Shown here: positions 11,178 to 62,971 of the stretch, piece by piece | How positions within the stretch are numbered: position 1 is the stretch's first letter | Layout of the letters: each line of letters opens with the position of its first letter | DNA from: a bacterium | Lineage (GTDB): Bacteria > SM23-31 > JAUVVT01 | NCBI GenBank assembly: GCA_030616165.1 | Contig: JAUWXV010000001.1 | Location: forward strand, 17,843 to 81,842 | Length of the DNA stretch: 64,000 nucleotides | Direction of reading: 5' to 3' | Notes under the pieces: model-generated | The model's database searches: none | What the model saw: the letters and a program-made list of their open reading frames with translations, nothing else | Told to the model about the DNA's origin: nothing | Translations under genes and position numbers: made by a program

Positions 11178-11495
11178 ATTTTTAATTTTAAGTTTTCTTT
11201 GCCACTTTCTTTTTTAAAAGAAAGTAGCATATTTAATAAAAATTAACTAAAGTCTATTAATTTAATCAACAGAACTTTGATAAATTTCTACTGTAGATAA
11301 TTCGAAACATTCTGAAACAAATAAAGGCTGACTGTCATGCTGAATCCTGTGCTGAACTTGATTCAGTATTATTTCAGCATCTTAGCAATTAATAAACAAT
11401 AGATTCCGTCCCTTGTAGGGGCGGTTCGTGAACCGCCCTTACCTGTGCTTTTGTGAATTAATAGAACCAATATATTTACAAAAAATAACAATTTT

Positions 11496-13061
11496 TCAAA
11501 ATTTATCAGAGTTTTGTTTATCAAAATAACCCTGATTTTTAGCTTCGATTAAAATTTTTTTAGCAATTGAAGCAGCATCCTCACCGCCATACCCTCCATT
11601 CTCAACAACCACCGCAAGGGCAATTCGTGCATTATTATATGGAGCAAACGCAGTAAACCAACTGATATTTCCCATTCCCGCCTTTTCAGCGGTTCCAGTC
11701 TTTCCAGCAACCTCAAGACCAGAGATATTTACCCGAAAACCAGTTCCATTTTTCACAACATTTCTCAAAATATCTTGTAGCCTTTTCGCAGTAGATTTTT
11801 TAATTAACCTCCAACCTTTTTTATCTTTTTTATTTTTTTCGATTTTTGGATACACCAGAATCCCGTCATTTGCAATAGCGGCTGTAAAAAGTGCTACCTG
11901 CATTGGTGAAACAAGAACTCTTTGCTGACCGATAGATGCCCAGGCTAAATCAGATTCAGAAATATCTTCATACTCGGAGAAAAAACCCGTATTGATAGAA
12001 AAATCCTTTTTGAATAAATCATTAGTAGAATTCCATTTAAGTTTTTGGTTAAATCCGAATTTTTCTGCATACTTTTTAATAGTCTCTCTCCCAAGTGCAA
12101 CACCAAGTTTGGAAAAATATACATTGCTCGATTTTTCCATTGCACTCTCTAAATCCAAATATCCATGCCCTTTCCATATCTTTCCCTTTTTTTCATAAAT
12201 TCTCTTTTCAATGTCAAATATTCTTCTTTTCGTTCCAGATGGTAGATAGCCCTCTGGTGCACAGTAAAACCTTCTATTAAAATTATTTTCAATTGCAGCA
12301 GCGGCAGTTACAATTTTAAAAACCGATCCGGGGGGATATCTACCCTTCAAAGCCCTGTTAAACATTGGTGCTTCTTCTGAATTATTAATTATGCTCATCC
12401 AGGTCTGCTCATCGGAAATGTCATTCGTCGGAAAACCCGGAGAACTCACGAGACACAGCACTTCCCCGGTTTTTGGAATCAAAACAACAGCAGCCCCGCA
12501 CCTTTCTCCAAAAGAAGAATATGCCTCATGCTGAAGTTTACTATCTATTGTCAGATGGAGATCTTTTCCCTTTTGCTTTTTCATTGAAAAGTAGTTTAAA
12601 AAATTAAATTCTTTACCAACCAAAAAATCGTGATAACACCTTTCTATTCCTGCACCACCCCTCTCAATATCCCAATATCCAACAAGATGTGATGCCGCCT
12701 TACCTAATGGATATATTCTTTTCTTCTGATTATTAATCCTGATGCTTAATGCCAAATTTTCCCCCCCTGTTCTATCTAAAATTTTTCCCATTTCTACTCT
12801 TTCATCCTTGAGCCATTCCCTTCTGTCAAAAAGCCTGATGCTCTGATTCATCCTCTCGTCCTTGCAAAACAACTGCCACTTTGATTGATATATCAGAACG
12901 GATAAAAATAAAAGGAAAAAAAACAATGCGGTCGAAAAAAATATAATTCCTGATTTTACCTCTCTTGTTATATGTCTTGCAGTTGCAATTAAAATATTTA
13001 TACTTGCCACCGTCAATCCAAAAATATAAATGAATTTCAAAAATATGTATAATATCTTCAT
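11496..13061 (-). CDS. class B penicillin-binding protein (PBP2-type transpeptidase)
   Basis: N-terminal TM anchor. SxxK (GSVFK), SxN (KSSNVYF) and KTG(T) (AGKTGTAE) transpeptidase motifs. Confidence 0.85.
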   Translation of the reverse strand: MKILYIFLKFIYIFGLTVASINILIATARHITREVKSGIIFFSTALFFFLLFLSVLIYQSKWQLFCKDERMNQSIRLFDRREWLKDERVEMGKILDRTGGENLALSIRINNQKKRIYPLGKAASHLVGYWDIERGGAGIERCYHDFLVGKEFNFLNYFSMKKQKGKDLHLTIDSKLQHEAYSSFGERCGAAVVLIPKTGEVLCLVSSPGFPTNDISDEQTWMSIINNSEEAPMFNRALKGRYPPGSVFKIVTAAAAIENNFNRRFYCAPEGYLPSGTKRRIFDIEKRIYEKKGKIWKGHGYLDLESAMEKSSNVYFSKLGVALGRETIKKYAEKFGFNQKLKWNSTNDLFKKDFSINTGFFSEYEDISESDLAWASIGQQRVLVSPMQVALFTAAIANDGILVYPKIEKNKKDKKGWRLIKKSTAKRLQDILRNVVKNGTGFRVNISGLEVAGKTGTAEKAGMGNISWFTAFAPYNNARIALAVVVENGGYGGEDAASIAKKILIEAKNQGYFDKQNSDKF

Positions 13062-13143
13062 AAATCTCGCAAATTTTTATTTTCTATTTAAAATTTTTGT
13101 ATTGCAACTTTTTTGTAAAAAAAGTTGCGTAAAAAACTTTAAA

Positions 13144-13845
13144 CTATATTTCCATTAATTCCAGCACTACAGTTCTTTTTCTGCCGAGATATATCTTATC
13201 ACCTGGAATAATATAAACACCATTTTTTACAGGAATTAAGTCATCATTTAAATACGTTCCGTTTTTGCTTTTGCAGTCCGAAATCTTTATATCACCAGAA
13301 GAAGATAAAACCAAGTTTGCATGACATGCAGAAACATACGGATTATCAATGTGAATGTATGCCTCCATTTTTCTACCAATTTCATATTCCCCGGGTCCAT
13401 CAATTATCCACATTTTACCTTCCTCATTAAGAAGTTTTAAATAATAACTTTTTTCTTTAATTATTGTGTCTTCCTCATTTGAAGAAAAGCAGAGTAACTT
13501 AATTTCATAATCTTTCAAGTATGACAAAGGATAAAAATCTATTATAATTTTCTCATTTCTTAACCGACAGCCAAGAAATAAAAAATATTCTTCAATTTCC
13601 TTCTTTAAGCAAAATATCAGTATTTCTTTTTTCTTTTCTATCTTTCTATATGTTTTTTGACTCACACAAATCAAGAACCTATAAGGAACAGATTTAATAT
13701 CTTTTCTGTTGTTAACAAAAAAACTATTTATTTTTTCTACAATATGAAAGTATAATCTATCCTTATGGTCTGATGGAATCAAACACCAGAACGGAAAAGT
13801 CACTAAATTTTTAATTTTTTTATTTAAATTTGTTGTAATTCCCAT
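13144..13845 (-). CDS. FHA-domain protein
   Basis: C-terminal FHA signature EYEIGRKMEAYIHIDNPYVSACHANLV...KSKNGTYLND...IPGDKIYLG. Confidence 0.7.
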   Translation of the reverse strand: MGITTNLNKKIKNLVTFPFWCLIPSDHKDRLYFHIVEKINSFFVNNRKDIKSVPYRFLICVSQKTYRKIEKKKEILIFCLKKEIEEYFLFLGCRLRNEKIIIDFYPLSYLKDYEIKLLCFSSNEEDTIIKEKSYYLKLLNEEGKMWIIDGPGEYEIGRKMEAYIHIDNPYVSACHANLVLSSSGDIKISDCKSKNGTYLNDDLIPVKNGVYIIPGDKIYLGRKRTVVLELMEI

Positions 13846-13877
13846 CCTTACTTAAAAACCAGTTTTTTCAAAATTTA

Positions 13878-13990
13878 ACCACAGAGAACACCCACAGGGC
13901 AGGCAGAGTCCGACTGTGGCGGAAATATCAATGAGTTAAGGGAAATACTATTCTCTCCTCTCTGCCTGCCCTGTGGGTGGTCTCTGTGGT
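13878..13990. repeat. long near-perfect inverted repeat (about 32-bp arms, about 48-nt loop)
   Basis: aaccacagagaacacccacagggcaggcagag ... ctctgcctgccctgtgggtggtctctgtggtt. Located between the two FHA genes. Confidence 0.6.
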
Positions 13991-14028
13991 TTCATATTTT
14001 ATCCTCGTTTTTCATAGAACTTTTGACA

Positions 14029-14916
14029 CTACCTAAAAACCAATAATTTTAATTCGAAAGTATAATCTCCCATTTTAATCTGGTCTTTAATAAAAATTTC
14101 TCTTTTCTTTCCGAGTTCCAGCTTTTCTTCATTCAAATATGTACCATTAATCCCAAGGGGCATGACAAATATCTTGTCATTTTCCATGATTAATTCAATA
14201 TGCCTTCGAGAAATTTTATGGTCGGTGCTTTTAAGACAAATATCACATCTTTCACTTCTCCCAACAGTATAAACTCCATCCTCGAGGTCAATGTATTTTT
14301 CTTCATCATTATAAGAAATTTTCAAGATGTAAATCCTATTCTTGTCTTTATCAAAAGAGGTCTTGTTCTCTTGTATTATCTTTATTGCATCATCTGATAT
14401 CAGCGGCAAAAACTTCCTTTCCGCGTTCAACAAAGGATTATTATCATTTTCCAGGTCAAATTTGTCCTCGATTAATGTCTGCTGTAATGAACTAACTCTC
14501 TCCGAAAATTTATTTTCTCCCGTTTTTAAGATACTTCTGTCCAGTGAACATTCAATATAAAATTCTCCCGGCTTTAAATCGTCATCTGATTGGATTTCTA
14601 CATAAAAATGTTCTATATTACGATTATTCCATTCCTTAGAAAGATTGTATAATTCTTCTTCAAGTTCACTTTTCAGTATGTCTTCGATATCACGGCGCAT
14701 ATTTCTATCAAACTGGCTGAAAAATATCTCGAATCTATTCGGTATAACTACTTTTTTACCAATTTCATCGATGTTTTCTTCTATTGCACATTTTAGTTTT
14801 TGGGAAATCTTTGAAAATGGTATTTTTCTGCTTTTAGAAAATCCACTTTTATCGAAATTGGATAAATTAAGCAAAAAACTTTTGAATGCTTCAAAAAAAT
14901 TATTTAATGTCATCAT
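14029..14916 (-). CDS. FHA-domain protein (N-terminal uncharacterised domain plus C-terminal FHA)
   Basis: YTVGRSERCDICLKSTDHKISRRHIELI...LGINGTYLNEEKL...IKMGDYTFELK. Confidence 0.75.
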   Translation of the reverse strand: MMTLNNFFEAFKSFLLNLSNFDKSGFSKSRKIPFSKISQKLKCAIEENIDEIGKKVVIPNRFEIFFSQFDRNMRRDIEDILKSELEEELYNLSKEWNNRNIEHFYVEIQSDDDLKPGEFYIECSLDRSILKTGENKFSERVSSLQQTLIEDKFDLENDNNPLLNAERKFLPLISDDAIKIIQENKTSFDKDKNRIYILKISYNDEEKYIDLEDGVYTVGRSERCDICLKSTDHKISRRHIELIMENDKIFVMPLGINGTYLNEEKLELGKKREIFIKDQIKMGDYTFELKLLVFR

Positions 14917-14945
14917 AATTTCTCCAGGTTGTTTTTTTATAAATA

Positions 14946-15149
14946 TTATTGATTTTTTCTCATTTTTTCTTCAATTATCCTCTTGATTTCAGCAACATTT
15001 TCATCATTAAAAACCCTCCATCCCCTCCAATCCTTTTTTACTTTAGAAATCTTTCCCTCTTTTTCCCATGTAAATAGAGTCTTTTTGGTAACATCAAACA
15101 TTTTACAGATTTCGTGAGCAGTGTATTTCTTCTTATGTGCTTTTTCCAT
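14946..15149 (-). CDS. small MerR/excisionase-type HTH DNA-binding protein
   Basis: HEICKMFDVTKKTLFTWEKEGKI helix-turn-helix. Start chosen at internal ATG 15149, which is preceded by an AAGGAG RBS. The longer ORF-track N-terminus is AT-rich junk. Confidence 0.5.
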   Translation of the reverse strand: MEKAHKKKYTAHEICKMFDVTKKTLFTWEKEGKISKVKKDWRGWRVFNDENVAEIKRIIEEKMRKNQ

Positions 15150-15565
15150 TGATAAACTCCTTATATATAATAAAAATAATATAATAACTATAATTTCTAT
15201 AATTACTATAGTAAATATAATAATTAATTTTCTGTTTGTCAAGGAAAAAATTAATTTTTTGTAAATTTTTTTAATTTAGTTTAATTTTACATTATGGCAG
15301 GAGATATTCACAGAATTTTTATTGTAATATGTAGGGGCGGTTCTCGAACCGCCCTTATAAAAATTATATTATAATATTGTTTTGCTAATCATGGATTTGC
15401 TCACCAATTTTTTGGATTTTCCTTACCCGATTCCCATTCTAATGGACTATTAATGGGGCATTCGCGAATTAGGTGTAAGGACGAAGCATTTAACTAAATA
15501 GTTTTCAAAAAATTTACAGCATAGACAAAAAAATGCTTCGCCCTTACTGATTTTGGTTTCATTTA

Positions 15566-17005
15566 TTAGATATGGACAACCTTTATCCCTGCGAGCTCGC
15601 AGTATGCTTTGAATGGAATCTCCAGGTCGCTGTAAATAAAGAGCTGGTGGAATCCCTTCGTGTCACGGACATCAGGGACACCGTCCACCTCAATCTCCAT
15701 GGATGTACGGCAGCCACCTGCAGGTGGAGTATCGATATTGCGAAGTACCCGACCTGTGCCGAGAAGTATGGAATCTGGTCTGGTGAACTGCATTATTGTA
15801 ATCTTTTGGCCAACGCGCCAGAGAACCTGTGGTGAGACTCCGAGTTCAGACTCATTATGGTTGCGGAGGATGAAGGGCTCGTGGGACCTGTTAAAACCGT
15901 CGAGTCTGGTGGGGCTGGTGCAATGGGCAGCCATCAGTGTATTATTGACTGTGTTAGGCGCGGGATCTTGCATGAAGCCTGGTCGGTCGAAGAGAAGGCT
16001 CGTGAGACGCTGGGATATGGTGTGGTTCACGCTGGCTTCGCAGGTCCCGACATAGCCTTCGTCGAGGAGCCGTAGCAAGGCTATGCAGGGTGGACACGGG
16101 ATCTGGCGGTCACCAACCAAACCCAGGCAGTCCATTGAGATGCCATGGCAGTTCTCGGCTTCCATGATTCTGCGGGAAACAATGTAATTCTTCGCTGCAT
16201 TTATCCTGTCACCTCTGTTCGGCTCAACGATCCTCTCACTCCTGGATTCGTAGTAGTCGGCGATTGCTCGAATCTCTTCGGTTGTCTCCGTCTTTTTGAA
16301 TTCCTCTGAAAAGCGGTTGCGGGGGATATAGTGAATCGTCGTGCCGATGGTATCGAGCTGCCGGTCATAAGTCTTATTGCCTCGCATGATGCATATGCGG
16401 GTGTGTTTCATCTGCCATATGGTATTGAGCATCCGCATAGCGAAGTTGAGCCAGCTGACATCCTGAGTGGCACCAACCGTGACACCTGTGATATTTCGGG
16501 TTCCCTGGAGGTGTTGGGTAAAGGAAGTTCCCATCTGGCTGAACACAACCATCGGGATTTCTCCATGGTTCTCGGCAATGTGATTAATGTTACCCCAGGC
16601 TGGGTCGTTGAGGCTCATTGAGACAATCACGATGCCGTCTGGCGGAGCCTTCTCGAGGCTCTCGAGGAATGCGCTGATGGTATTGGAATCATGCAGTGGC
16701 GCCTCGATTATCTCAAGGTCAATTCCAAACTTCTTGGCAGCATCTGTCAGCACCTTCGTATACTGAACCTGGTGACCTTTAATGTCGAAGGAGGCTCCCG
16801 GCCAGCCCATCCAGTATTTCTCGACATCTGGACGAACAAATGCTGCCCGAACCAGAGGCTTCCTCGATGTCTTGACTTGCACAGCTGAGTTCGGCGCGTC
16901 GAAATCGACAAATCCTCTATCCAAATTTATCTTTGGCAGTACTGCAGCTGCACTTACACCAGCAGTAAACTTCTTTAAAACTTCTCTCCTTGTTATTTTC
17001 TTCAT
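15566..17005 (-). CDS. Tat-signal secreted protein of unknown function, on a GC-rich island
   Basis: MKKITRREVLKKFTAGVSAAAVL twin-arginine signal. The body is about 50% GC against about 33% in the surroundings. Flanked by palindromic repeats. Confidence 0.5.
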   Translation of the reverse strand: MKKITRREVLKKFTAGVSAAAVLPKINLDRGFVDFDAPNSAVQVKTSRKPLVRAAFVRPDVEKYWMGWPGASFDIKGHQVQYTKVLTDAAKKFGIDLEIIEAPLHDSNTISAFLESLEKAPPDGIVIVSMSLNDPAWGNINHIAENHGEIPMVVFSQMGTSFTQHLQGTRNITGVTVGATQDVSWLNFAMRMLNTIWQMKHTRICIMRGNKTYDRQLDTIGTTIHYIPRNRFSEEFKKTETTEEIRAIADYYESRSERIVEPNRGDRINAAKNYIVSRRIMEAENCHGISMDCLGLVGDRQIPCPPCIALLRLLDEGYVGTCEASVNHTISQRLTSLLFDRPGFMQDPAPNTVNNTLMAAHCTSPTRLDGFNRSHEPFILRNHNESELGVSPQVLWRVGQKITIMQFTRPDSILLGTGRVLRNIDTPPAGGCRTSMEIEVDGVPDVRDTKGFHQLFIYSDLEIPFKAYCELAGIKVVHI

Positions 17006-17148
17006 TTTAATTTTCCTTTCTATACTTTTATGAAATTATATTTTCTAACCTGAATAATTCATAAAATTCTTTATTTTATTAGGCATATTTTTGATATTAT
17101 TAAAATTGCTATAGAATTACCTTAAAACAATGTTGAGTGTCGCTACTA

Positions 17149-17260
17149 TTGTCATCCTTAACCCTGTGCTGAACTTGATTCAGTATTGTTTCAGGATCTA
17201 ATATTAAATCTGAAGATAGATTCCGAAGATCCTGAACATGTTTCAGGATCGGAATGACAG
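17149..17260. repeat. MITE-like element with TGTCAT terminal inverted repeats
   Basis: ttgtcatcc...ggaatgaca ends. The internal 30-bp core cctgtgctgaacttgattcagtatt.tttcag is also present at 11347-11378. Confidence 0.5.
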
Positions 17261-17481
17261 TCGGTGTTTCGGAATGATAAAAACAGGATTTACGAATAAA
17301 TCAGGCTAATTAATAGAAATATTTTTTACAAGGTTATGTTAAAATATAAAAAAAATATTACAATTTTCAAAAATATTTTCTAAAATTAAAAAATATTTTT
17401 CTCTTGACAAAGATTTTAAAAAAGGGTAAATTCCTAACACATTGAAAGTATTTTATTTATGGTTAAACAATTAAAGATAAA

Positions 17482-19300: not shown

Positions 19301-21709
19301 ATGAAAAGAATAGTATTGTTATTCATTAATGTCTTATTTAGTATTCATTTTATAGTATTTCAGGTTTCTTTATTTGCAAGTGATGAATTTGCTACTGCTC
19401 TGCAAACTGACGAGTTGGAGATTCTGCAAGACACGAAACCTTTAACCTGGGAGGGTGACCTGTCGAAAAGAATGATGGACGGCGCCCATCGGTATATTGA
19501 GCGGAAAATCGACGAGTCAGTTACAGTCCGCCAGAAATACTGGAAGCGGGATCTCTCGTCACGAACTGCATATGAAAAATCCATCGAGCCGAACCGCAAG
19601 CGCTTCATGAAATGCATCGGTTTAGTGGGCGAGCGCGTGCCGGTTGTGATGCAGCGTCTTTGTGAAGATGCTAACCCAGAACTGGTTGCCGATACGGATA
19701 AATATAGCGTGTATCAGGTTCGCTGGTCGGTGCTGGATGGAGTGTTTGGCGAGGGGCTTTTGCTCGAGCCGAAGGTCAAGCCTACTGCTTATGTCGTGGC
19801 AGTTCCCGACGCGGGTCAGACTCCCGAACAAATTGTCGGCTTGGCAAGCGGCGTACCGAAAGAAGCACAGTATGCACGCCGCCTTGCCGAAAACGGCTTC
19901 CAGGTCGTGGTGCCGGTGATTATCAGCAGGTCTTCGGATTTTTCCGGGCACCAGGACCAGACACACCGTGAATGGATTTATCGCCAGGCGTTTCATATGG
20001 GCCGGCACATTATCGGCTACGAAATGCAGAAGGTGCTTGCAGTTGTGGACTGGTTCAAGAAAATAGCCGGAGAGGAGGCGAAGATAGGTGTTGTCGGATA
20101 CGGTGAGGGAGGATTGATAGCGTTTTATGCCGCGGCAGTGGACACACGGATAGATGCAGCACTGGTCAGCGGTTATTTCCAATCGCGTCAGGGTGTGTGG
20201 AATGAGCCGATATACCGTAATGTGTGGGCGCTGCTGCATGAGTTTGGAGATGCCGAAATCGCCACTCTGATTGCTCCACGTCCATTAGTAGTTGAATACA
20301 GCAGAGTGCCAGAGGTTGACGACTATGCAGAGAGGTTGCGGAGGAACCCTTATGTCACGAGTGGTTTTACTGTCGACGGGTATAAGGGCCAACTGCGCAC
20401 TCCGTCGTTTGAATCTGTCAGGGAGGAATTCAACCGAATTGACATACTGACGAAGCCGTCTTTTCAGCCGAAGAGCCTAATCAGCGGCAAGAACGGCTCT
20501 ACTGTGGCCCCCGGCTCGGTACAAGCGATGCGGGAATTTGCCCAATTGTTTGGAGTCCGATCGTCTATGACGCTGTCAATCGACCTGCCCATTGATCGCC
20601 GCAAGTCGCTCGATTCTGCCGAATTGCAACACCGGCAGCTCAAAGAGCTTGAATACCATGTGCAGCGGCTGATTCGCGATGCAGATTATGTCCGTGACCA
20701 ATTCTTCATGTACAAGGTGATGCCCGAATTTGCAAAAAAGAGGTGGAGCACCGCACAGCGACACGAGACATATCCATCGCAGAAGTTCATAGAAGGAACA
20801 AAGGAGTACCGTCAATACTTCTGGGAGGAAGTGATAGGTAAGTTCGATGAGCCAATGCTTCCGATGAATCCGCGAGCAAGGAAAATTTATGACGAACCGA
20901 AATGGGCAGGCTACGAAGTGGTGCTGGACGTGTTTCCGGATGTGTTTGCCTGGGGCATCCTGCTGGTTCCGAAAGACCTGAAAGCCGGTGAGAAGCGACC
21001 ATTGGTGGTATACCAGCACGGACGCAATGGTCTGCCCAGGAACTCCATCAAGGGAGGGCGGGAAGTTGCAGCGAAACTGGCTGACCGAGGATTTATCACC
21101 TTTTCACCGCACAACCTTTACCGTGGTGAGGATCGGTATCGCTTTCTTGACCGCAAGGCTAATGGAGTTAAGGCATCATTGTTTTCTTTCATCCTCGCTC
21201 AACACGAGCAGATTCTAAACTGGCTTGAAAAACTGCCGTTTGTGGATAGTAAGCGAGTAGGATTCTACGGGATTAGCTATGGGGGTGAGACGGCGGTGCG
21301 TGTGCCGCCGTTGCTTGAGCGATATTGTCTGTCAATCTGCTCAGCCGACTTTAACGACTGGGCGCGCAAGGTTGCCAGCACTCACCCTCAAGGCAGATAC
21401 AGTTTTATGTACACTATTGAATGGGAGATGCCGTACTTTGACATGGGCAGTACGTTCAACTATGCAGAGTTGGCATACCTGATGGTGCCGCGTCCGTTCA
21501 TGGTCGAGCGTGGCCACCACGACACTGTTGCACCTGATGAGTGGGTTGCTTATGAGTATGCAAAAGTGCGCTGGCTGTATGCACAACTGGGGCTTGCTGA
21601 TAAAACAGAAATAGAATACTTTAACGGCGGACACGCCATTAACTTCAGCGGTACATTCAAGTTTCTGCACAAACACCTGAACTGGCCGGAGCCTGCGGGG
21701 CAAGAATAA
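19301..21709 (+). CDS. secreted alpha/beta-hydrolase family protein (tandem hydrolase folds; esterase/peptidase-like)
   Basis: Signal peptide. GxSxG nucleophile elbows (VVGYGEGG and GISYGGE). GC-rich body. Confidence 0.5.
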   Translation: MKRIVLLFINVLFSIHFIVFQVSLFASDEFATALQTDELEILQDTKPLTWEGDLSKRMMDGAHRYIERKIDESVTVRQKYWKRDLSSRTAYEKSIEPNRKRFMKCIGLVGERVPVVMQRLCEDANPELVADTDKYSVYQVRWSVLDGVFGEGLLLEPKVKPTAYVVAVPDAGQTPEQIVGLASGVPKEAQYARRLAENGFQVVVPVIISRSSDFSGHQDQTHREWIYRQAFHMGRHIIGYEMQKVLAVVDWFKKIAGEEAKIGVVGYGEGGLIAFYAAAVDTRIDAALVSGYFQSRQGVWNEPIYRNVWALLHEFGDAEIATLIAPRPLVVEYSRVPEVDDYAERLRRNPYVTSGFTVDGYKGQLRTPSFESVREEFNRIDILTKPSFQPKSLISGKNGSTVAPGSVQAMREFAQLFGVRSSMTLSIDLPIDRRKSLDSAELQHRQLKELEYHVQRLIRDADYVRDQFFMYKVMPEFAKKRWSTAQRHETYPSQKFIEGTKEYRQYFWEEVIGKFDEPMLPMNPRARKIYDEPKWAGYEVVLDVFPDVFAWGILLVPKDLKAGEKRPLVVYQHGRNGLPRNSIKGGREVAAKLADRGFITFSPHNLYRGEDRYRFLDRKANGVKASLFSFILAQHEQILNWLEKLPFVDSKRVGFYGISYGGETAVRVPPLLERYCLSICSADFNDWARKVASTHPQGRYSFMYTIEWEMPYFDMGSTFNYAELAYLMVPRPFMVERGHHDTVAPDEWVAYEYAKVRWLYAQLGLADKTEIEYFNGGHAINFSGTFKFLHKHLNWPEPAGQE

Positions 21710-21776
21710 GAGGAAAAGGTATTTTTGATAAAATAATTTCACATTATCTCAATAGAACTACAATATTCTCTACATA

Positions 21777-23583: not shown

Positions 23584-23640
23584 TAATTTGTCATTGCGAG
23601 TGAAGTCTCCCGAGTACTCGGGGGATGAAGCGTGGCAATC
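23584..23640. repeat. partial copy of a TTTGTCAT-ended hairpin element
   Basis: Shares aatttgtcattgcgag and the tctcccgagtactcggggga palindrome with the element at 23778-23914. Confidence 0.45.
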
Positions 23641-23777
23641 TCAACAATTGAATATATTAGTGATTTAAATAAAAGATTTTAATTTTCAGAGTTTGCCAAA
23701 TTTATTTAATATAAAATATTAGTCAGTATTTTTCAATATAATTTATCTGACCTATTTATAAAATTTTAGAGTAGGAT

Positions 23778-23914
23778 AATTTGTCATTTCGACCGGAGTC
23801 TCCTGAGTACTCAGGGGACAAAGTGTCCTCCGAAGGCGGATCCGCCTTTGGCGGAGAGAAATCTCAAAAGACGAGATGTCTCGTCCCGACGGTTCGGGTT
23901 AAACATGACAAATT
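23778..23914. mobile_element. 137-bp MITE-like element with perfect 10-bp TIRs (AATTTGTCAT/ATGACAAATT) built from nested hairpins
   Basis: TIRs read directly from the sequence. Internal palindromes ctcctgagtactcagggga and ccgaaggcggatccgcctttggcgg. Confidence 0.55.
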
Positions 23915-24076: not shown

Positions 24077-25489
24077 TTAATTTCCAAATCGGGGATTTAC
24101 AACATTGCTGTAAATAGACCCGAATGTGTATCTCAATCCTATTGAAAAATAGTAACTATATTGAGTGGCAAGTTGTTTCTGACGCAGCAGAATTTCCTCT
24201 TCCGTTGCACCCTTCTTGGGTAATGACAATTGGTCGTGAATCCTCGATGCGCTTCCTAATAAACTCAGGGAGAATCCTTCAAAGAGACGCAGGGATAAAT
24301 TACTAAATAATACTAATCTGTTTTTGCTGAAATCGTGAGAATAGTGTGAACCCGCTAATGTGGTACTCACAGAGCCCCATCTTTCCTTAACCTCATACGT
24401 AGCGGAAAGACTTTCACTAACTAAGTTCTCTCTGAGTTTTTCATAAATAGTTTCTTCGTCGTAGCGAATGTTAGTATTACCCACTCTGTAAAGAAAACGA
24501 AATTCTCTTCGTGTGGATTGAGCGTATGGAAATACATTGTATTCAATGGCAGGTGCAACATTGAAAGAAAATTTAGTATTAGTATAGATTGATGATAGTG
24601 CATCCCCATATACTCCAATCGACCAGTGTCCACCAAGACTTTTAACGAGTAACCCACGAAATGAGTGAGACCTTATAAAACTGGAGATTGTATTATCACC
24701 TATTTTGTAATTGGTTTCATTATAATTTGTACTAAAAGAAAGGCTTGTTTTCCAGTCGGGTGCTACTCTATCTGCAGAAACAGACCCATAAATCGACATA
24801 CTTTTTATGGATTCCTCTCCATTAAAAAAACCCCTGATACTGCTATTAAATACCCAGTAGTCCCATTTGTCCACCACAGCACCCGGGTCTGTCCTCTTCC
24901 TGTAATTAATAGAAATATATTCGGCAAGAGGAGTTTTAGATACATAAGGCATTAAGCCCATTTTAAGAATCCTCACAATCCCGCTCCTGCGGATTTCTTG
25001 TGTGTCTGTTTGTCTTGATACGTACTTTAGCGTATCATTCTGATTAACAAAGTTTTGCTGCCCGGTAAGAGTCAGTGTGTATTCTAATCCTCCGGCACCA
25101 GTCCTCTGAGTTGTCAGCATTATATAGACCTGTGCTTGTTTCCTGTCCCGCACGTAATTCACGAAAGGGATTTCCCTTTTAATGTGATCCTGATAGGAAG
25201 ACAATCTGTCGAGGAAGATTCTTACGGCACTCTCCTGCAGTTCTGTACTGTCACTTTCGACCTCTTGTGAATAAGATTGGGGAATTGAAATAAAACAAAT
25301 CAAAAATAGTATGGTGCTGAGATAAAGAAAAGTCAATGACAGGGCAGTTCTAAAGCGAGAAATGACTGCAGTCATTGAGGGGAATACCATCACAAAACGC
25401 TGTTTGTAGTTTTTATTCATACAACTAAGTGAGCGCTTTGAATTACCGAACAATACAAAACAAGAAAAAATGCGAATAAATTGATTCAT
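24077..25489 (-). CDS. predicted outer-membrane beta-barrel protein, paralog A
   Basis: Signal-anchor followed by alternating hydrophobic beta-strand pattern. About 75% identical to the downstream paralog. Confidence 0.5.
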   Translation of the reverse strand: MNQFIRIFSCFVLFGNSKRSLSCMNKNYKQRFVMVFPSMTAVISRFRTALSLTFLYLSTILFLICFISIPQSYSQEVESDSTELQESAVRIFLDRLSSYQDHIKREIPFVNYVRDRKQAQVYIMLTTQRTGAGGLEYTLTLTGQQNFVNQNDTLKYVSRQTDTQEIRRSGIVRILKMGLMPYVSKTPLAEYISINYRKRTDPGAVVDKWDYWVFNSSIRGFFNGEESIKSMSIYGSVSADRVAPDWKTSLSFSTNYNETNYKIGDNTISSFIRSHSFRGLLVKSLGGHWSIGVYGDALSSIYTNTKFSFNVAPAIEYNVFPYAQSTRREFRFLYRVGNTNIRYDEETIYEKLRENLVSESLSATYEVKERWGSVSTTLAGSHYSHDFSKNRLVLFSNLSLRLFEGFSLSLLGSASRIHDQLSLPKKGATEEEILLRQKQLATQYSYYFSIGLRYTFGSIYSNVVNPRFGN

Positions 25490-26019
25490 AGTGAATTACT
25501 CCCTGAGTTTATATTTAAAAGGTATTTCGACTAACTTGTTATTTAAGATGACACGGCAAAAAGTAAAAATTAAGGAGTTTAATGATGGGTTCAATAAATA
25601 AATTCTATTGTAAATTAAGAACTTATACACCAGACTGTCATTCCCGCGAAAGCGGGAATCCACCTTTTGCCGCTTCGTCATTTGAAGAATATGGATTATG
25701 ATAGTATATGTTCAATTTTTCAGTCCTATAAATATATGACTATCTAAATTTGTTAATAGTTTTACTAAATTTAATATGCGGAGTTCCTTATTAATACAAT
25801 GTTAGGACGGATTACGCTGGTGTTAATCTCTGTAGTTCTGTAATTTTTATAAAAAGGATTATAAGAAAAAAGACAATTATTCCCCCATCTAATCATTTTC
25901 CAATTTTTATTTCTTTTATATATTTAAATATAATAAAATCAAATAAATTAGTCAAGGTATTCTTTAAGTTTTATGTAAAAATTTATCACATTGAATATTA
26001 ATCAAAGAATAAAAAAGCC

Positions 26020-26145: not shown

Positions 26146-27603
26146 TCAACGAAATCCACCTCCTCCTCCACCCCCACCACCTCTACCTCGAGGACTTCCA
26201 AATCGAGGATTTACAACGTTGCTGTAAATAGACCCAAATGTGTATCTAAATCCCACTGAAACCATGTAGTCATATTGAGTGGCAAGTTGCCTCTGACGCA
26301 GCAAGATTTCCTCATCCGTTGCCTCCTCCATAGGTAATGATAATTGGTCATGAATCCAGGATACGTTTGCGAATATAGTTATGGAAAGTCCTTCAAAAAG
26401 GCGAAGGGATAAATTACTGCGTAATTCTAAACGCTTTTTCCTGAAATCGTGAAAGTAGTGTGAACCTTCCAATGTGGATGTCACAGAGCCCCATCTTTCC
26501 TTAACCTCATACGTAGCAGAAAGACTTTCATTAAATAAGTTCTCTCTGAGTTTTTCATAAACGGTTTCTTCGTCATAGCGAATGTTAGTATCGCCTATTC
26601 TGTAAAGAAAACGAAATTCCCTTCTCGTAGATTCAGCATAGGGGAACACATTGTATTCAATTGCAGGTGCCACACTGAAAGATAATTTAGTGTTAGCATA
26701 GATTGATGATAGTGCAGACCCATATCCTCCAATCGACCAATGTTCACCAAGACTTTTGACAATCAACCCCTGAAATCTCTGAGACCTTCTATAACTGAGA
26801 ATAGTACCGTCTTCTGTTACGTAACGGCCTTCATCATAGTCTGTGTCTATACCAAAGTTTATTTTCCAGTAAGGGGTTACACGGTCAATAGAAAAAGAGG
26901 CATCAATTGAATAGCTTTTTCTCTTCTCTTCTCCATTAGTGCGACCGCTGATATTGGTATTGAAAACCCAATAGTCCCACTTATCCACCACAGCAGTTGG
27001 CTCTGCCCTCAGCCTGTAATTAACAGAAATATAATCACCAAGCGGAGTTTTAGACACATAGCGTACCAAGCCCATCTTAAGAATCCGTACAAGCCCGCTC
27101 CGAATGATTTCCTGGGTATCTGCTTGTTTTGATACATACTTCAATGTATCGTTCATGCCGACAAAATTTTGCTGTCCGATGAGTGTTATTGTGTATTCCA
27201 TTCCTCCAGCGCCGGTCCTCTGCTGTGTTAGCATCACATAAACCTGCGCTTGTTTCCTGTCCCGAACATAATTCACGAAAGTAATCTCCCTTTTGACATG
27301 ATCTTGATAAAGACGCGATACGTCAAGGAAAATTTTTACGGCACTCTCTCGCAATGCTGTGGTATCACTTTTTGCTTCCTGAGAATAAGAGTGAGGAACC
27401 GAAATAAAACAAATCAAAAATAGTATGGCACCTAAATAAAGAAGGGTCAATGACAGGACAGTTTTAAAGCGAGAAATTGGTGCCGTCATTGAGGAAAATA
27501 CCATCAGAAAACGGTGTTTATAGTTTTTATTCATACAACTAAGTGAACGCTTTGGACCTCCGAACAATAAAAAACAAGATAAAATGCCAACAAATCGTTT
27601 CAT
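26146..27603 (-). CDS. predicted outer-membrane beta-barrel protein, paralog B, with C-terminal poly-Gly tail
   Basis: Same architecture as 24077-25489. Extra C-terminal SPRGRGGGGGGGGGFR encoded by a GGN repeat. Confidence 0.5.
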   Translation of the reverse strand: MKRFVGILSCFLLFGGPKRSLSCMNKNYKHRFLMVFSSMTAPISRFKTVLSLTLLYLGAILFLICFISVPHSYSQEAKSDTTALRESAVKIFLDVSRLYQDHVKREITFVNYVRDRKQAQVYVMLTQQRTGAGGMEYTITLIGQQNFVGMNDTLKYVSKQADTQEIIRSGLVRILKMGLVRYVSKTPLGDYISVNYRLRAEPTAVVDKWDYWVFNTNISGRTNGEEKRKSYSIDASFSIDRVTPYWKINFGIDTDYDEGRYVTEDGTILSYRRSQRFQGLIVKSLGEHWSIGGYGSALSSIYANTKLSFSVAPAIEYNVFPYAESTRREFRFLYRIGDTNIRYDEETVYEKLRENLFNESLSATYEVKERWGSVTSTLEGSHYFHDFRKKRLELRSNLSLRLFEGLSITIFANVSWIHDQLSLPMEEATDEEILLRQRQLATQYDYMVSVGFRYTFGSIYSNVVNPRFGSPRGRGGGGGGGGGFR

Positions 27604-28064
27604 TGTAGATCTCTCCTTAAGTTCAGGTTAAAGTGGATACTTATATAACTCGTTTATATTCAAGGTATTTCGGATTTCTATTACTGTAAATTTATTGTTT
27701 TCCTTATTATTTCATTATCTACTTGAGTTTTTAATCTTGCTTTATATACATTTTTTATCCAAAATAATTCAAAAAAGAATTTTATTTATTAAAAAATTTT
27801 GTTTTATATTAACTTAAGAATTAAAAAAAACAAAATCGGAGACTGGTGAAAAAGTTTTATGAAATAAGTTGAATCTGATTTTTAAAACGGAGAAATAACA
27901 TCAAATCATGTTCCACCATCTAATCATTTTCCAATTTTTATTACTTTTATATGCATAAATATAATAAATTCAAGGACATTAGTCAAGTTATTCTGAAAGT
28001 TTTATAAAATTTTTTTTTTTTAAAAATCTGGCATTTTTAATTTTGTAACCTGATAAAATTTTAA

Positions 28065-28111
28065 TAAAAAAGCCCATTAATAAAAATTATTAATGGGCTT
28101 GGGTGTTTTTT
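28065..28111. terminator. bidirectional Rho-independent terminator
   Basis: aagcccattaat..attaatgggctt 12-bp stem flanked by A-run and T-run. Confidence 0.55.
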
Positions 28112-30046: not shown

Positions 30047-30147
30047 AGAAACTCCCCGAAAATATTAATAGATTTACTTGTACAAACAGAATAAATTAAA
30101 TATATTAATGGATAATATTAATGTCAATGTTTTAATTGGAAGAAAAG

Positions 30148-30177
30148 TAGGGGCGAAGCATTTTTTTGTCTATGCTC
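30148..30177. repeat. GTAGGGGCG-type palindromic repeat (copy of 15519-15548 in reverse orientation)
   Basis: gtaggggcgaagcatttttttgtctatgct matches the reverse complement of 15519-15548. Confidence 0.55.
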
Positions 30178-30405
30178 TGAATTTTTCGAAAACTCTTTAA
30201 TTGAATGCTTTGCCCACACTACTTTTTTTTAAACTCAAGCATTTTCTTAATTTATGATGCTTTTTTAAATACTCTTTAAAAAAATACTTGACAGGGAATT
30301 TTTGTTTTTGTATATTTCCTACTAATTTGATAGGAATAGTTGGAATAATATTTTGAATCAAGTATAAGTTTAAATTAAATATTCGGATAGAAGGGGTGAT
30401 GGCTA

Positions 30406-37074: not shown

Positions 37075-37179
37075 GAGATTGCCACGCTTCATCCCCCCGC
37101 TGAAAGCAGGGGGACTTCGCTCAACACGATAAATTAACTGCAAAGAGAGGAGCGACGCCTGCGCAGGCGTGGCAATCTC
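37075..37179. mobile_element. about 105-bp MITE-like element with perfect 13-bp TIRs GAGATTGCCACGC/GCGTGGCAATCTC
   Basis: TIRs read directly. The right end GGGGGATGAAGCGTGGCAATCTC is shared with the 23584-23640 element. Confidence 0.55.
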
Positions 37180-52076: not shown

Positions 52077-52127
52077 AAAGATCTTGAAAATTTTGCCATA
52101 ACATAATGAATAACAACAGTTTGTTAA

Positions 52128-52164
52128 AAAGAAAACAGTTCTTTGTGAGCTGTTTTCTTTTATT
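52128..52164 (+). terminator. Rho-independent terminator
   Basis: gaaaacag/ctgttttc 8-bp stem followed by TTTTATT. Confidence 0.5.
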
Positions 52165-54580: not shown

Positions 54581-54592
54581 GGTGTTTATTAC

Positions 54593-59512: not shown

Positions 59513-59761
59513 AATCAACATACTGTTCCTTATTAACTGTCAGGTTATTAAATATGATAAAAGCCCTTTATGACCAACTTGTCGTAAAGGGCTTATTGCT
59601 TTCCGTTTCAATTTATAAAGTATTTCCCATATACTCCGAACAGTGCAATTTTTTAAAATTAATTTCTTTACACTATAATTGTATCTTTAAAGTGTGTTGA
59701 TGACAACACCAGCTCAAAGGGCAAGCACACAACATACTTTTCTTGGTTAGTGCGAAAGTGA

Positions 59762-60703
59762 TTATTTTTCAGTTTTGGCTGACCTTGGGAAAAAGACCCA
59801 CACATTCGGATGCATGGTATAAAGCCTGTATTGTGTTCCGTCATGTACCAGGATACCGCTGGACTTATCACCTCCACTAACAATAGGGTTTTTCGGATAT
59901 TTTTTCCAGTGAATCAGGTCATTAGAAACTGCAACATTAGTAGTCCAGTCGCTCCATGGCTGGTTAGAACAAGCATGGTAATTGCAGTAATACCTGCCTT
60001 TGTATTTTATAATCTGGTTCATCGCAACAGCTTCTTTGTCGTATTGTTCTGGTCCCCTAACAATTACGGGGTCGTTCTGAACGTTGGTCCAGATTTTAAG
60101 GTCTGTAGAGGTAGCCAACCAGATGCCACGGTCACTGCGTTCGTAAAAAAGGAACCATTTTTCATCTTCAATCCAGATTGTAGGGGTGCCGTAAGGGCCC
60201 GGGCTTAGTGATTCGCCGTTTGTGTAGCGGATATCAAGACTTCCATGGTCTTTCCAATGGATTCGGTCTTTGGAGGTCATCATATGGGCAATATCGTTTA
60301 GCCCTTCGGCAAACATGTAATAAGTATCGCCATGCTTGATAACGCACATATCCTCGACCCAGGATTCAGTAAATATGGGATTGTCGGGATAGCGGGTCCA
60401 GTTGAAACCATCTTGTGATGTCCCGTATCCCAGATACAATGTCCTTGATAGTTTTCTGTTATAACCTGTATACCAAATATGATATATGTCACCTTCCCGA
60501 AGAATGTATCCCCGCTCGCGGATGTTTCTATCCCATGTATCCGTACCAGTCCCTGCAAAGACCGGATTATTCTCATACGGAACAAAGTCCACCATTTCGG
60601 GAGGAAATTCTTCTAAGATAGTTTTGTCCACTTCCCTGCCGGGTGCCTCTTTTTTACTGCATCCCACTGCTGTGGCTAATAACGATATCATCAGAATATA
60701 CAA
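59762..60703 (-). CDS. lipoprotein, five-bladed beta-propeller glycoside hydrolase-like (GH43/GH32/GH130 clan)
   Basis: Lipobox LLATAVGC. Repeated W/Y-rich blade motifs (DIYHIWYTGY, DTYYMFAEG, EKWFLFYER). Confidence 0.45.
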   Translation of the reverse strand: MYILMISLLATAVGCSKKEAPGREVDKTILEEFPPEMVDFVPYENNPVFAGTGTDTWDRNIRERGYILREGDIYHIWYTGYNRKLSRTLYLGYGTSQDGFNWTRYPDNPIFTESWVEDMCVIKHGDTYYMFAEGLNDIAHMMTSKDRIHWKDHGSLDIRYTNGESLSPGPYGTPTIWIEDEKWFLFYERSDRGIWLATSTDLKIWTNVQNDPVIVRGPEQYDKEAVAMNQIIKYKGRYYCNYHACSNQPWSDWTTNVAVSNDLIHWKKYPKNPIVSGGDKSSGILVHDGTQYRLYTMHPNVWVFFPRSAKTEK

Positions 60704-60787
60704 TGCCTTTTACATTCATAATTCTCCCATATTTATTGTAGATAATTAAACTGTATTTTTCATATGGATATTTTAATGAATTTTCAT

Positions 60788-60958
60788 TTCAACCAAATGT
60801 GGGGGCGAACCCGTGTGTTCGCCCTCTTTATTTTCTTCCTTGCCCTTCGGGTCTGCGTCCTTGCCATTTGAATCTGCGGTTTATTATAATTGTTTTAATT
60901 TTTTTCTTTAGCCAAATGTAGGGGCGAACCCGTGTGTTCGCCCTCTTTGTTTTCCAAC
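60788..60958. repeat. two direct copies of a GTAGGGGCGAACCCGTGTGTTCGCCCTC hairpin repeat
   Basis: 60797-60830 and 60915-60947 are nearly identical. A related copy lies at 61575-61602. Confidence 0.6.
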
Positions 60959-60973
60959 AACTAACATCTGCAT

Positions 60974-61441
60974 TTAAGCCAATATGTTCGGAGTGACCAT
61001 CCAGCGGATTGACCAACTGCCCGATTTCTCCGTTCCGAGACAGACAATACTGCCCATCTGAAATTCAACCACCTCCTTATCTGCATCTTGACATAGCAGA
61101 AGTGCGGCCAATTTACTTAGGTGGGGGAGATGACCCACTAATATAATGTCTTCGGTTCGATTAGCCAGGCGTTCCGCCCAGATAGATGGCTCGTCCAGAG
61201 GTTTTAGGCCTTCGGTTTCGCCGATTTCAATTGAAGAACTCAACTGCTCAGCCAGTACTTCGACTGTCTGTTTTGCCCTCGTCTTTCCACTATGAAAGAT
61301 ATCTTTCACACTGATATCGCCTTTTTGGGCAATAAAATCTGCCACTTTTTTAATATCTGACCATCCCTTTTCAGAGAGAGGCCTTTCCGGGTCTTCTTGT
61401 TCCGTTTTTGCCTGAGCATGCTGTACCAAATATACATTCAT
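60974..61441 (-). CDS. sixA: phosphohistidine phosphatase SixA-like (histidine phosphatase family)
   Basis: VYLVQHAQA (RHG-type motif variant) and ...ILVGHLPHLS. Confidence 0.7.
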   Translation of the reverse strand: MNVYLVQHAQAKTEQEDPERPLSEKGWSDIKKVADFIAQKGDISVKDIFHSGKTRAKQTVEVLAEQLSSSIEIGETEGLKPLDEPSIWAERLANRTEDIILVGHLPHLSKLAALLLCQDADKEVVEFQMGSIVCLGTEKSGSWSIRWMVTPNILA

Positions 61442-62001
61442 ATATAGTACCTCACTTAATATATTCCTTTAATGCAACCAGCCTGTCAATTTTCATATCC
61501 TCCACCTTATAAACCACAAACATCCCACCTTCACCAAGTGTAGGGTTTTGCCAATCATATAGATAAACCTGTTTTTAAATTACCGTAGGGGCGAATGGCA
61601 TTCGCCCTATTTATTATATTATTTTTTTTTGCCGACTTGTCCGCCGTCTTTTTGGAGGATCATTTTTCCAACCCCGCTTTTTTCAGCAGCGCCTTAAACC
61701 TCGGTTCATCAGGAATACGCCAGCTATCAATTGGAAAGACTCTAAACCAAGGGATAAACCTTTTCCAACTCTCGTTCCCAAACTCTGTTTGGGAACGAGA
61801 GTGGCTGAGAAACTCCGTTTCTCAAAAACTTCGATTAAACTAATATCTCATCTATTTTTATATAACTCTAAAATAAAGAAAGTATTTTAATCTTTACCCG
61901 CATTATTTTGGATTAGTCCTTAAATTATTAAATGAGCAATTAAAAAATTCATCATTCGTAAATCGTAAATCGTAAAGTTAATATGGAACAATAATACTAT
62001 T

Positions 62002-62274
62002 TTATTCTTTCCCCCAGAATTCATCGGCTTCTTTTTCCATCTTTTCAAGTCTGTCATAGTAATCTGGAAACTCATTTAAATGTGCCAGGGCAATTTTACC
62101 AGTCATTATTGAATCATCATTTGTAACGTTAGTAACTTCATCATGTGTGCCATGTTCTAACTCCACATTTATACCTATCATAAACTGATTCACATCAAAT
62201 TTATCCCATTTAATCCCCAATTTTTCGCCGATTTCTTTTGCTTCTTCTTCAGTAATATTTTTTTTAATTTCCAT
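62002..62274 (-). CDS. small hypothetical protein
   Basis: 90-aa acidic ORF; no recognisable domain. Confidence 0.35.
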   Translation of the reverse strand: MEIKKNITEEEAKEIGEKLGIKWDKFDVNQFMIGINVELEHGTHDEVTNVTNDDSIMTGKIALAHLNEFPDYYDRLEKMEKEADEFWGKE

Positions 62275-62872
62275 TTTTATAACTCCTGAATCTAATAATT
62301 AAATAAGTCTTAATTATGGTTGAAACTCCTTTTTATTATGACCTTGGTCATCTCATGTCAAAATATATTATTTCATAAAGTTCCTATCAATAAATCAATT
62401 TTTATTTAAAGGTATAAATAAATACTCCGATAATCAACTAAAAAATAAAATTAATTATAAATCATATCTCTCATATTAACAATAAAAAAGCCCTGGGGAA
62501 TTCCCTTCTGGTCTTTATGTACATTAGATTGGATTCGAAATATAAACTTGTGTTTAACAATCTATAAATTTGTTAAAAAAATACAGACAGGGGGTCATTT
62601 AATTTTCTCTTTGATTAAATTTTACTTGCTTTTATATAGATTATTTATTACCTATTTTATATATAAACTTCTTTACTTACAATAGTATCCGTTTTATATC
62701 CCCAGAAGATACTGTTTGCTTTTTTGCAATTGACCAGTGCCATGTTAAATAACATATATTCTTTTTTGTAATTTTTATAAAAAAAGTTGACCGGAGTTAA
62801 GCACTTTTTTAATGAGAAAATAAAAAAGTTACTTAATTTTTATATTTGTATAATTTTCAAAAATATGTTAAC

Positions 62873-62971
62873 GGACAGAACATTGCCTGCACACTGTGTT
62901 CTATCCCCACATAATAATCATTTGTGATTAAATATATTGTAGGGACAGGACATTGTCCTGTCCTTCTGTTC
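62873..62971. repeat. pair of GTAGGG-type hairpins upstream of the sulfatase gene
   Basis: ggacagaacattgcctgcacactgtgttctatcccc and gtagggacaggacattgtcctgtcc. Confidence 0.5.

Follow-up and report, generated by a model that had tools for sequence, protein, structure and literature searches.

Two families of short, extragenic hairpin elements, here called A and B, are dispersed through a 64,000-nucleotide stretch of DNA (the window) from an uncultured bacterium of the GTDB lineage SM23-31; JAUVVT01 (GenBank assembly GCA_030616165.1, contig JAUWXV010000001.1, positions 17,843 to 81,842 of the forward strand). Family A very probably consists of GTAG-tagged repetitive extragenic palindromic (REP) sequences of the type associated with subclass 2.4 of the REP-associated tyrosine transposases (RAYTs), and family B of hairpins of the CGTC/TGTC-tagged REP superfamily, which family B fits wholly or partly. 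Both families fall within published REP superfamilies, and the link to RAYTs, including the presence of REPs inside the RAYT gene, has already been described. What the window adds is an extension of these REP types to a low-G+C (36.7% across the window), uncultured lineage, together with clean orthologous comparisons in which REP replacement, decay, and deletion can be followed over ~6-8% sequence divergence.

Family A is present in eight copies within the 64 kb, six short units (A1, A2, and A5 to A8) and two double-foot units of 73-76 nt (A3L and A4L). All eight are intergenic, in a window of which spacers make up 15.6%. The units are as follows.

A1, 11415 to 11442, plus strand: GTAG-tagged REP, near double-foot, GTAGGGGCGGTTC GT GAACCGCCCTTAC; free energy -11.1 kcal/mol, z -5.3
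A2, 15331 to 15357, plus strand: GTAG-tagged REP with the stem GGGCGGTT
A3L, 15475 to 15547, minus strand: 73-nt double-foot element resembling a REPIN (REP doublet forming a hairpin), with arms GTAAGGGCGAAGCAT / ATGCTTCGTCCTTAC; z -5.4
A4L, 30147 to 30222, plus strand: second long double-foot copy, right arm decayed (ATGCTTTGCCCacaCTAC)
A5, 60799 to 60826, plus strand: REP with a GTGG tag, GTGGGGGCGAAC CCGTGT GTTCGCCC
A6, 60918 to 60945, plus strand: REP GTAGGGGCGAAC CCGTGT GTTCGCCC, an exact instance of a motif found in many phyla
A7, 61585 to 61611, plus strand: short GTAG REP, GGGCGAATG G CATTCGCCC
A8, 62939 to 62965, plus strand: GTAG REP with a different stem, GGACAGGAC ATT GTCCTGTCC

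The feature by which a GTAG-tagged REP is recognized, an unpaired 5' GT[AG]G where the hairpin begins, is found in all six short units. Family A stems are 8-12 bp long, inside the 6-13 bp span of GTAG-tagged REPs, with free energies of -8.7 to -11.1 kcal/mol, and when folded as single-stranded DNA they have z-scores of -3.3 to -5.4. The bottom of the stem reads GGG...CCC in A1, A2, A5, A6, A7, A3L, and A4L, and a double foot, GT[AG]G...C[TC]AC, is present in A1, A3L, and A4L. Within A3L and A4L, inverted arms (GTARGGGCGAAGCAT / ATGCTTCGCCCYTAC) flank a conserved AT-rich spacer; the long double-foot elements, including the copies in relatives, share 84% identity over three independent genomic sites. 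A1 sits 54 nt downstream of the stop codon of a penicillin-binding protein (PBP) gene on the opposite strand, A5 and A6 with their flanks form a 66-nt local duplication (82% identity), and near A7, at 61540-61556, one arm (GTAGGGTTTTGCCAATC) of a long double-foot element survives as a remnant. An earlier note on this DNA had described family A as GTAGGG(G)CG followed by a hairpin. The sites that it listed for the two families all hold the motifs described, with some boundaries misplaced. GTAG followed by a hairpin stands, but GGGCG belongs to the 5' arm of the stem and the tag is GTAG. Moreover, 15519-15548 and 30148-30177, taken as whole units, are only one end of 15475-15547 and 30147-30222, and the REP placed at 61575-61602 actually spans 61585-61611. 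(Within the GC-rich gene 19301-21709, at 21285-21312, there is also a G+C-rich, REP-like hairpin, GACGGCGGTGCGTGTGCCGCCGTT, with a CYRYGT-like loop and without a GTAG tag, which could be the relic of an intragenic REP or a product of chance.)

Comparison with shuffled sequence demonstrates an excess of family A over chance. A strict scan (GT[AG]G followed directly by a stem of at least 8 bp with no more than one G.T pair and a loop of 3-8 nt) yields seven matches in the window versus 0.45 +/- 0.70 in shuffles, where the maximum is three. Six of the seven are the short family A units, and the other is the reverse strand of B5, a family B unit whose tail CCAC reads GTGG on that strand. The sequence GTAGGGGCG, allowing at most one mismatch, occurs 10 times versus 3.4 +/- 1.9 in shuffles (0/100 shuffles reach 10), and exact GTAGGGGC is intergenic in 5 of 5 cases. 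The shuffle comparisons of GTAGGGGCG and of the strict scan both reject a chance origin; a loose hairpin scan, which allows G.T pairs, one mismatch, and loops of up to 60 nt, does not discriminate family A (105 versus 83 +/- 9). A CRISPR-like array or tandem repeat is rejected because the copies in the window are irregularly spaced.

The connection of family A with RAYTs comes from other genomes. Public sequence collections were searched with the A6 sequence with a free loop, GTAGGGGCGAACNNNNNNGTTCGCCC (GTAGGGGCGAAC-N6-GTTCGCCC), which is present in 23 viral contigs and in at least 119 genome stretches, among them stretches from Oscillospiraceae/Firmicutes, Bacteroidota, Chloroflexi, Cyanobacteria, Beggiatoaceae, cable bacteria, Nitrospirota, candidate phyla, and others. 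The loop of these instances is conserved as CYRYGT even though it was left free in the search. When the open reading frames (ORFs) within 1.2 kb of the motif at the 119 genome loci were clustered, one protein family of 180-250 aa, encoded at 13 of the 119, recurred across unrelated taxa. This protein contains the motifs MPNH[IFV]H, LWQRNYYEHIIR (WQ), and YIxNNP; it passes the Pfam threshold for Y1_Tnp (PF01797), and its best NCBIfam match is NF047646 (REP-associated tyrosine transposase), below the equivalog cut-off. At 11 of the 13 loci the motif lies in frame inside the RAYT gene, and at the other two it is 60-85 nt from the gene. One locus (L138) carries extra copies flanking the RAYT gene, and all copies outside the gene are 60-485 nt away. 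Inside the gene, an in-frame inverted REP pair (GTAGGGGCAGAC..GTCTGCCC, spacer, GGGCGAAC..GTTCGCCCCTAC) is positioned between the HuH and Tyr motifs and is translated as VGADLRVCP...GEHxGSPLH. Overall, an inverted partner REP lies no more than 160 nt away for 31 of the 137 instances of the motif. The suggestion in the earlier note that an IS200/IS605-type TnpA (RAYT) is the cognate enzyme of family A is thus upheld insofar as the same 26-nt sequence stands in or near RAYT genes elsewhere, but not by any such gene in the window. A scan of viral contigs for the long double-foot arms found them in one contig. In another viral contig (L023, 2419-2996) there is a tandemly reiterated REP cluster of five GTAG REP copies, four of them, with their flanks, at an exact 110-nt period.

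GTAG-tagged REPs and REPINs with RAYTs were reportedly described by Nunvar in 2010 and by Bertels and Rainey in 2011. The wider GTAG superfamily is defined by Di Nocera et al. 2013 (PMC3733652), and subclass 2.4 of TnpA_REP is the only one in which REPs are inserted in frame within tnpA_REP (Quentin et al. 2018, PMC6006769). The REPs of this subclass have three G-C pairs at the bottom of the stem and include "double foot" forms, and the subclass occurs abundantly among Cyanobacteria and Bacteroidetes and patchily elsewhere (PMC6006769). Because the features of family A agree with these descriptions of subclass 2.4 and of the GTAG superfamily, we classify its members as GTAG REPs of known type: they share the unpaired GT[AG]G foot, the three G-C pairs, the short and double-foot forms, the extragenic location, and the lack of target-site duplications. 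The features of subclass 2.4 that involve the enzyme, including the protein motifs and a REP pair placed between HuH and Tyr, are seen in the loci of other genomes (L028, L037, L096, L101, L138, L140, and others) and not in the window. Unlike the described systems, the window units are mostly singletons rather than inverted pairs, and the six short ones have one orientation, antisense to their flanking genes, five of them with a T-rich 3' flank. A further parallel is with the bacterial interspersed mosaic elements (BIMEs) of E. coli, in which REP types Y, Z1, and Z2 alternate in orientation. The loci of other bacteria similarly pair two distinct hairpins in inverted orientation (CGAAC/GTTCG and CAGAC/GTCTG, each keeping its own complementarity), but their stem sequences differ from those of BIMEs and the window has no alternating clusters.

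At least three types of stem occur in family B, a heterogeneous set that comprises the following units.

B1, 11333 to 11382, plus strand: TGTC-tagged unit, outer stem ATGCTGAA/TTCAGCAT around the nested hairpin GCTGAACTTGATTCAGT
B2, 17149 to 17260, no single strand: inverted dimer with TGTC tags outward (17150-17199 on the plus strand, ~17212-17259 on the minus strand), both units with nested hairpins
B3, 23589 to 23642, plus strand: TGTC-ATTGC-GAG...CGTG-GCAAT-CTC with the inner hairpin TCCCGAGTACTCGGGGG
B4, 23778 to 23914, no single strand: composite inverted dimer, tags outward; z -4.3
B5, 25636 to 25663, plus strand: canonical CGTC-1 type, TGTC ATTCCCGC GAAA GCGGGAAT CCA, dRS3-like
B6, 37075 to 37179, no single strand: inverted dimer of ATTGC...GCAAT units, tails outward (GAGATTGCC...GGCAATCTC), heads decayed; z -4.5

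Folds of these units as DNA give z-scores of -2.7 to -4.5, except for B3 at -0.8. TGTC heads are present on B1, both B2 units, B3, both B4 units, and B5; for B6 the window has only decayed heads (AACTGCAAAGA, ATCGTGTTGAG), and in relatives TGTC is intact only on the right-hand unit. The core shared by B1 and B2 is confirmed and is longer than was first claimed, with 90% identity over 50 nt (11333-11382 versus 17150-17199). B3, B4, and B6 follow the pattern TGTC-ATTGC-GAG-[variable hairpin]-CGWR-GCAAT-CTC, with an ATTTC/GAAAT variant in B4, whose first unit (TGTC-ATTTC-GAC...GAAAT-CTC) contains two nested hairpins and whose second is degenerate. The earlier note had characterized the family by TGTCAT-type ends. 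The hexamer itself is not enriched in spacers: 12 of its 74 occurrences are intergenic, and 28 of the 74 are in-frame Cys-His codons of CXXCH haem motifs. Only the tag plus the hairpin defines family B.

It had also been proposed that family B consists of miniature inverted-repeat transposable elements (MITEs), that is, deletion derivatives of an insertion sequence (IS) with a DDE transposase, bounded by TGTCAT terminal inverted repeats. The lengths of B2, B4, and B6 (105-137 nt) and their inverted ends of 8-14 nt are what such elements would show. However, B1, B3, and B5 are single units that have no partner and hence no second end, and each apparent "end" is a tag plus hairpin of the CGTC-REP form. 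What look like terminal repeats are a pair of hairpin units in inverted orientation, seen through their tags and stems. In B2 and B4 the tags point outward, but in B6 they point inward and it is the tails that face outward. The search for target-site duplications that had been suggested found no direct repeat of 3 nt or more in the flanks of B2, B4, or B6, and no matching IS is present in the window. We regard the MITE explanation as very improbable.

The superfamily of CGTC-tagged REPs accounts for these features better. As described by Di Nocera et al. 2013 (PMC3733652), its members have an unpaired terminal tag (CGTC, TGTC, or CCTC), a stem of 8-9 bp starting from A-T, T-A, a loop of 4-5 nt, and a tail resembling CCA; they are mostly inverted dimers, have no associated transposase, and include Neisseria dRS3 and Rickettsia RPE-4/RPE-6. 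Family B carries the listed TGTC variant of the tag, its stems begin with AT, and it forms inverted dimers, likewise with no transposase found nearby in the window. B5, with an 8-bp stem, a 4-nt loop, and a CCA tail, matches this description in every feature. AT-starting stems of CGTC length are found in B5, B1, and B2 (ATTCCCGC, ATGCTGAA, ATCCTTAA), being 8 bp in B1 and B2. The loop of 4-5 nt and the CCA tail are found in B5 only (GAAA, CCA), along with a simple unit in a relative (L263) as far as that contig reaches. B5 is a member of the CGTC class, and the remaining B units are CGTC-like variants.

The outer pattern of the B3 type is found in at least 120 IMG/VR contigs, with highly variable inner stems, and this widespread TGTC-ATTGC...GCAAT-CTC hairpin provides a tractable entry to the mobilization of CGTC-type REPs. 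Its consensus was not found in the text of PMC3733652, and full-text literature searches with the motif strings brought up nothing beyond primers and sequences of no relevance. Among the genes clustered around 119 viral B-motif loci there are only phage structural proteins, with no candidate enzyme and no RAYT homologue, a result that reflects the viral nature of the collection. In these loci (L144-L262, IMG/VR) the hairpin TGTC-ATTGCGAG...GCAATCTC is present in up to six copies per contig, often just upstream of a ribosome-binding site and start codon and often with a 5' half-unit ~12-16 nt before it. At its smallest, the inner part is GCGAAGC, which as DNA forms a mini-hairpin of very high stability.

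Several observations weigh against assigning the two families as above. Exact agreement with the RAYT-embedded sequence is confined to A5 and A6; the other family A units keep the tag and the initial GGGC of the stem, but their stem sequences are otherwise different, and several elements have the look of relics in decay, not of active copies. No RAYT or other transposase was found among the ORFs of at least 80 aa taken as genes in the 64-kb window, or in ~60 kb of DNA from relatives. Within family B, most units depart from the canonical CGTC description in having long loops and a CTC tail instead of CCA. B units other than B5 contain nested hairpins of 17-60 nt in place of the short loop and end in CTC, CTT, or CTA, and the stems of B3, B4, and B6 begin with AT but have a 5-bp outer stem. 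In the ATTGC...GCAAT type this outer stem leads into an internal loop that is conserved (GAG / CGWRG) and an inner stem that is hypervariable.

Closely related DNA makes it possible to follow individual sites. L263 is a metagenome contig with ~92% nucleotide identity that spans window positions 14-17162. Protein identity is 92-94% for L265, L266, L270, L271, and L273-L276, compared with 77-83% for L267 and L277; the contigs other than L263 jointly span ~30.0-30.4, 36.3-39, and 59.7-62.9 kb. Elements are replaced, decay, and are lost among the close relatives. A1 and B1 are absent from L263, where the same spacer holds, at another place, a different double-foot GTAG REP (GTAGGAGCAACCCCATGGTTGTCCCTAC). 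At the A2 site of L263 the flanks are kept, and the 27-nt slot is occupied by another REP variant, also intact, whose GTAG lies on the opposite strand; A3L is ~95% conserved there. The left arm of A4L is decayed and the right arm is intact in L273/L274, the reverse of the window. At the A5/A6 site there is one intact and one decayed unit in L271 and one decayed unit in L265; the site is mostly deleted in L270, and L267 has no unit. The A7 site has an intact long double-foot element in L265, L270, and L271, where the window has a short REP plus the remnant arm, and A8 is present in L270 with two stem-breaking changes.

Family B behaves similarly. At the B2 site, the L263 contig ends inside a simple unit, TTGTC ATTCTGAA CTCG TTTCAGGA, whose last stem base and tail are cut off. 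The B6 site holds a more complete element in L273, L274, and L276 and none in L277. The window, L273, and L274 each have an inner hairpin of their own in the left unit of B6 (window 37092-37116; L273 2856-2869), although the two contigs share 99.3% identity over 7.18 kb; ~40% of the differences between them fall within the 100-nt spacer of B6. The right-hand unit of B6 in the window contains a perfect 12-nt palindrome, GCCTGCGCAGGC, where the relatives are seven bases shorter and have no palindrome; the bases before GCCTGCGCAGGC also differ from those of the relatives. Two contigs of relatives end within elements, at B2 and at A4L, which is what multicopy repeats would lead one to expect. At the two sites compared in the more distant relative (contigs L267 and L277) there are no elements. 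This site-by-site comparison indicates that the elements are dispersed repeats, for the most part passed on in place across short distances, and such turnover is compatible with the view in published abstracts that REPINs are long-lived, vertically inherited populations. For annotation, REP sequences account for contig breaks and for spurious small ORFs such as "GEHxGSPL" and "VIASEAKQS".

Whether an enzyme is still at work bears on a second explanation, which we hold to be possible, if doubtful: the elements are REPs by origin but inert now, either ancestral relics or sequences carried in with horizontally acquired genes, with no enzyme acting on them. The absence of a RAYT from the window and from the sequences of relatives fits this explanation, as do the decayed arms of A4L, the A7 remnant, the B6 heads, and the decayed counterparts of A5 and A8 in relatives; loss of the REPtron is documented in other species (PMC3733652). 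A weak association with GC-rich neighbouring genes points the same way. The earlier note had put this more strongly, placing the elements almost only next to compositionally foreign genes. There is a weak trend of this kind, but the statement was excessive. Seven of 10 element-bearing spacers touch a gene of at least 42% GC compared with 8 of 24 other spacers (Fisher p = 0.07; one-sided Mann-Whitney p = 0.008), and three element-bearing spacers lie between genes of ordinary composition. Inertness is difficult to reconcile with the 27-nt slot at A2, where one intact REP has been cleanly exchanged for a different, likewise intact variant in L263, with the identical and intact cores of A5 and A6 where those of relatives are decayed, and with inner hairpins that differ between strains of 99.3% identity. 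These clean swaps, intact cores, and differing inner hairpins point to recent activity or to gene conversion.

A third explanation is that the hairpins are host regulatory structures, such as intrinsic terminators or insulators, maintained by selection with no mobile-like process. Five of the six short A units look like terminators on their GTAG (plus) strand, where a T-rich tail comes after the G+C-rich hairpin; a stop codon precedes four of the eight A units by no more than 55 nt, and several elements keep their position in relatives. However, all of the flanking genes are on the opposite (minus) strand, so the units do not have the arrangement of intrinsic terminators for them, and a hairpin and T tail in this orientation would terminate antisense transcripts only. 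The evident terminators of the window are built differently, as an A-tract, hairpin, and T-tract (28066-28104, 59557-59594, and 52123-52161). A purely regulatory function is also at odds with the presence of the same sequence inside RAYT coding regions across many phyla, and with units that are swapped, decayed, or deleted at orthologous sites. We therefore judge this explanation quite unlikely. The earlier note held that conservation at orthologous positions would signify regulatory sites rather than mobile repeats. This rule is too simple: several elements are indeed kept in place in close relatives, yet swaps, decay, and deletions are seen there too, and both families turn up again at sites that are unrelated and in genomes of unrelated organisms. 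The antisense placement of the short A units (6/6, two-sided p ~0.03) might reflect selection against terminating orientations or a replication-strand bias. A role at the level of the host, for example in transcription termination or insulation, is conceivable, and such a role and a REP origin are mutually compatible.

For family A, as GTAG-tagged REPs of the subclass 2.4-associated type, the mechanism would be processing by a RAYT that presumably acts, or once acted, on these units in this lineage. By analogy with the E. coli TnpA_REP and IS200/IS605 model (summarized in PMC6006769), the enzyme would recognize the folded hairpin and GTAG on single-stranded DNA and would then cleave and rejoin the GTAG hairpin DNA, steps that could spread, replace, or delete units without creating target-site duplications. 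The lack of such duplications and the in-situ swaps of REPs are consistent with processing of this type. For family B, a more specific and rather unlikely proposal is that TGTC-tagged units are actively processed at a fixed internal position by some single-strand DNA enzyme. Behind it are the segment from GAG to CGWRGCAAT, which differs in the window, L273, and L274; the 12-nt palindrome in the right-hand unit of B6; B1 and B2, in which a REP-like hairpin is nested in the loop of another REP; and the relative with the simple form at the B2 site. If the proposal were true, whether through site-specific cleavage and repair or through loop-targeted insertion, pairs of strains could expose the movement of CGTC-type REPs.

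The minus strand of the window carries an fhaA-fhaB-PBP-FtsW-kinase cluster; other genes are those of sulphur and thiamine metabolism, many multihaem cytochromes, and a protein with a type IX secretion system (T9SS) sorting domain, which suggests that the lineage probably falls within the FCB group. There are no tRNA genes in the window. Genes 15566-17005, 19301-21709, and 63475-63795 have 51-55% G+C, with third-position values (GC3) of 0.56-0.63, versus 37% G+C for the genome, and were probably acquired horizontally; the first is also present in L263, with 83.5% identity versus 90-94% for its neighbours. The tandem paralogous genes at 24077-25489 and 26146-27603 (~470-485 aa, no Pfam match) are a 2.1-kb tandem duplication, with 3'-terminal 300 nt that are 81% identical and upstream regions (25880-25974 and 27911-28005) that share 95 nt at 87% identity. 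Between 15 and 30 kb there is a broad minimum of cumulative GC skew, and gene orientation flips from the minus to the plus strand. GC skew in the window tracks gene orientation, and the minimum could mark a replication origin or simply follow coding-strand composition. Gene content also differs from L263 at window positions 4537-5878 and 8209-9546, where L263 lacks a ClpP-like SDH-protease gene and 1.3 kb covering most of a HEAT-repeat gene (8798-9757) and the 5' end of 8082-8801. Relative to L273, the window at 30.8-36 kb additionally has Thi4 and a sulphite-reductase / PAPS-reductase / PALP-TusA block, which are missing in L273 between Rrf2 and a hexapeptide transferase.

Two other hairpin loci fall outside families A and B. 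At 13870-13998 a third repeat family is represented by a 129-nt hairpin with 39-nt arms (AAACCACAGAGAMCACCCACAGGGCAGGCAGAG), a free energy of -43 kcal/mol, and z -10. Rfam gives no gathering-level matches in the window, and at E <= 1 its sole match is a sub-threshold miRNA model on this hairpin (13884-13984); the hairpin has no matches in viral contigs. A 171-nt segment (~13860-14030) that includes it is absent from L263 and is flanked by the direct repeat TAAAAACC, which could be a target-site duplication or could reflect a deletion between microhomologies. One arm of the hairpin recurs in L271 at ~480-515, the A8 site, and the window retains a remnant at 62873-62910. Finally, at 61764-61806 there is a perfect hairpin of at least 14 bp (CTCTCGTTCCCAAAC...GTTTGGGAACGAGAG), followed directly by a second hairpin at 61802-61829; the first is kept in L265 and L270 and is missing in L271.

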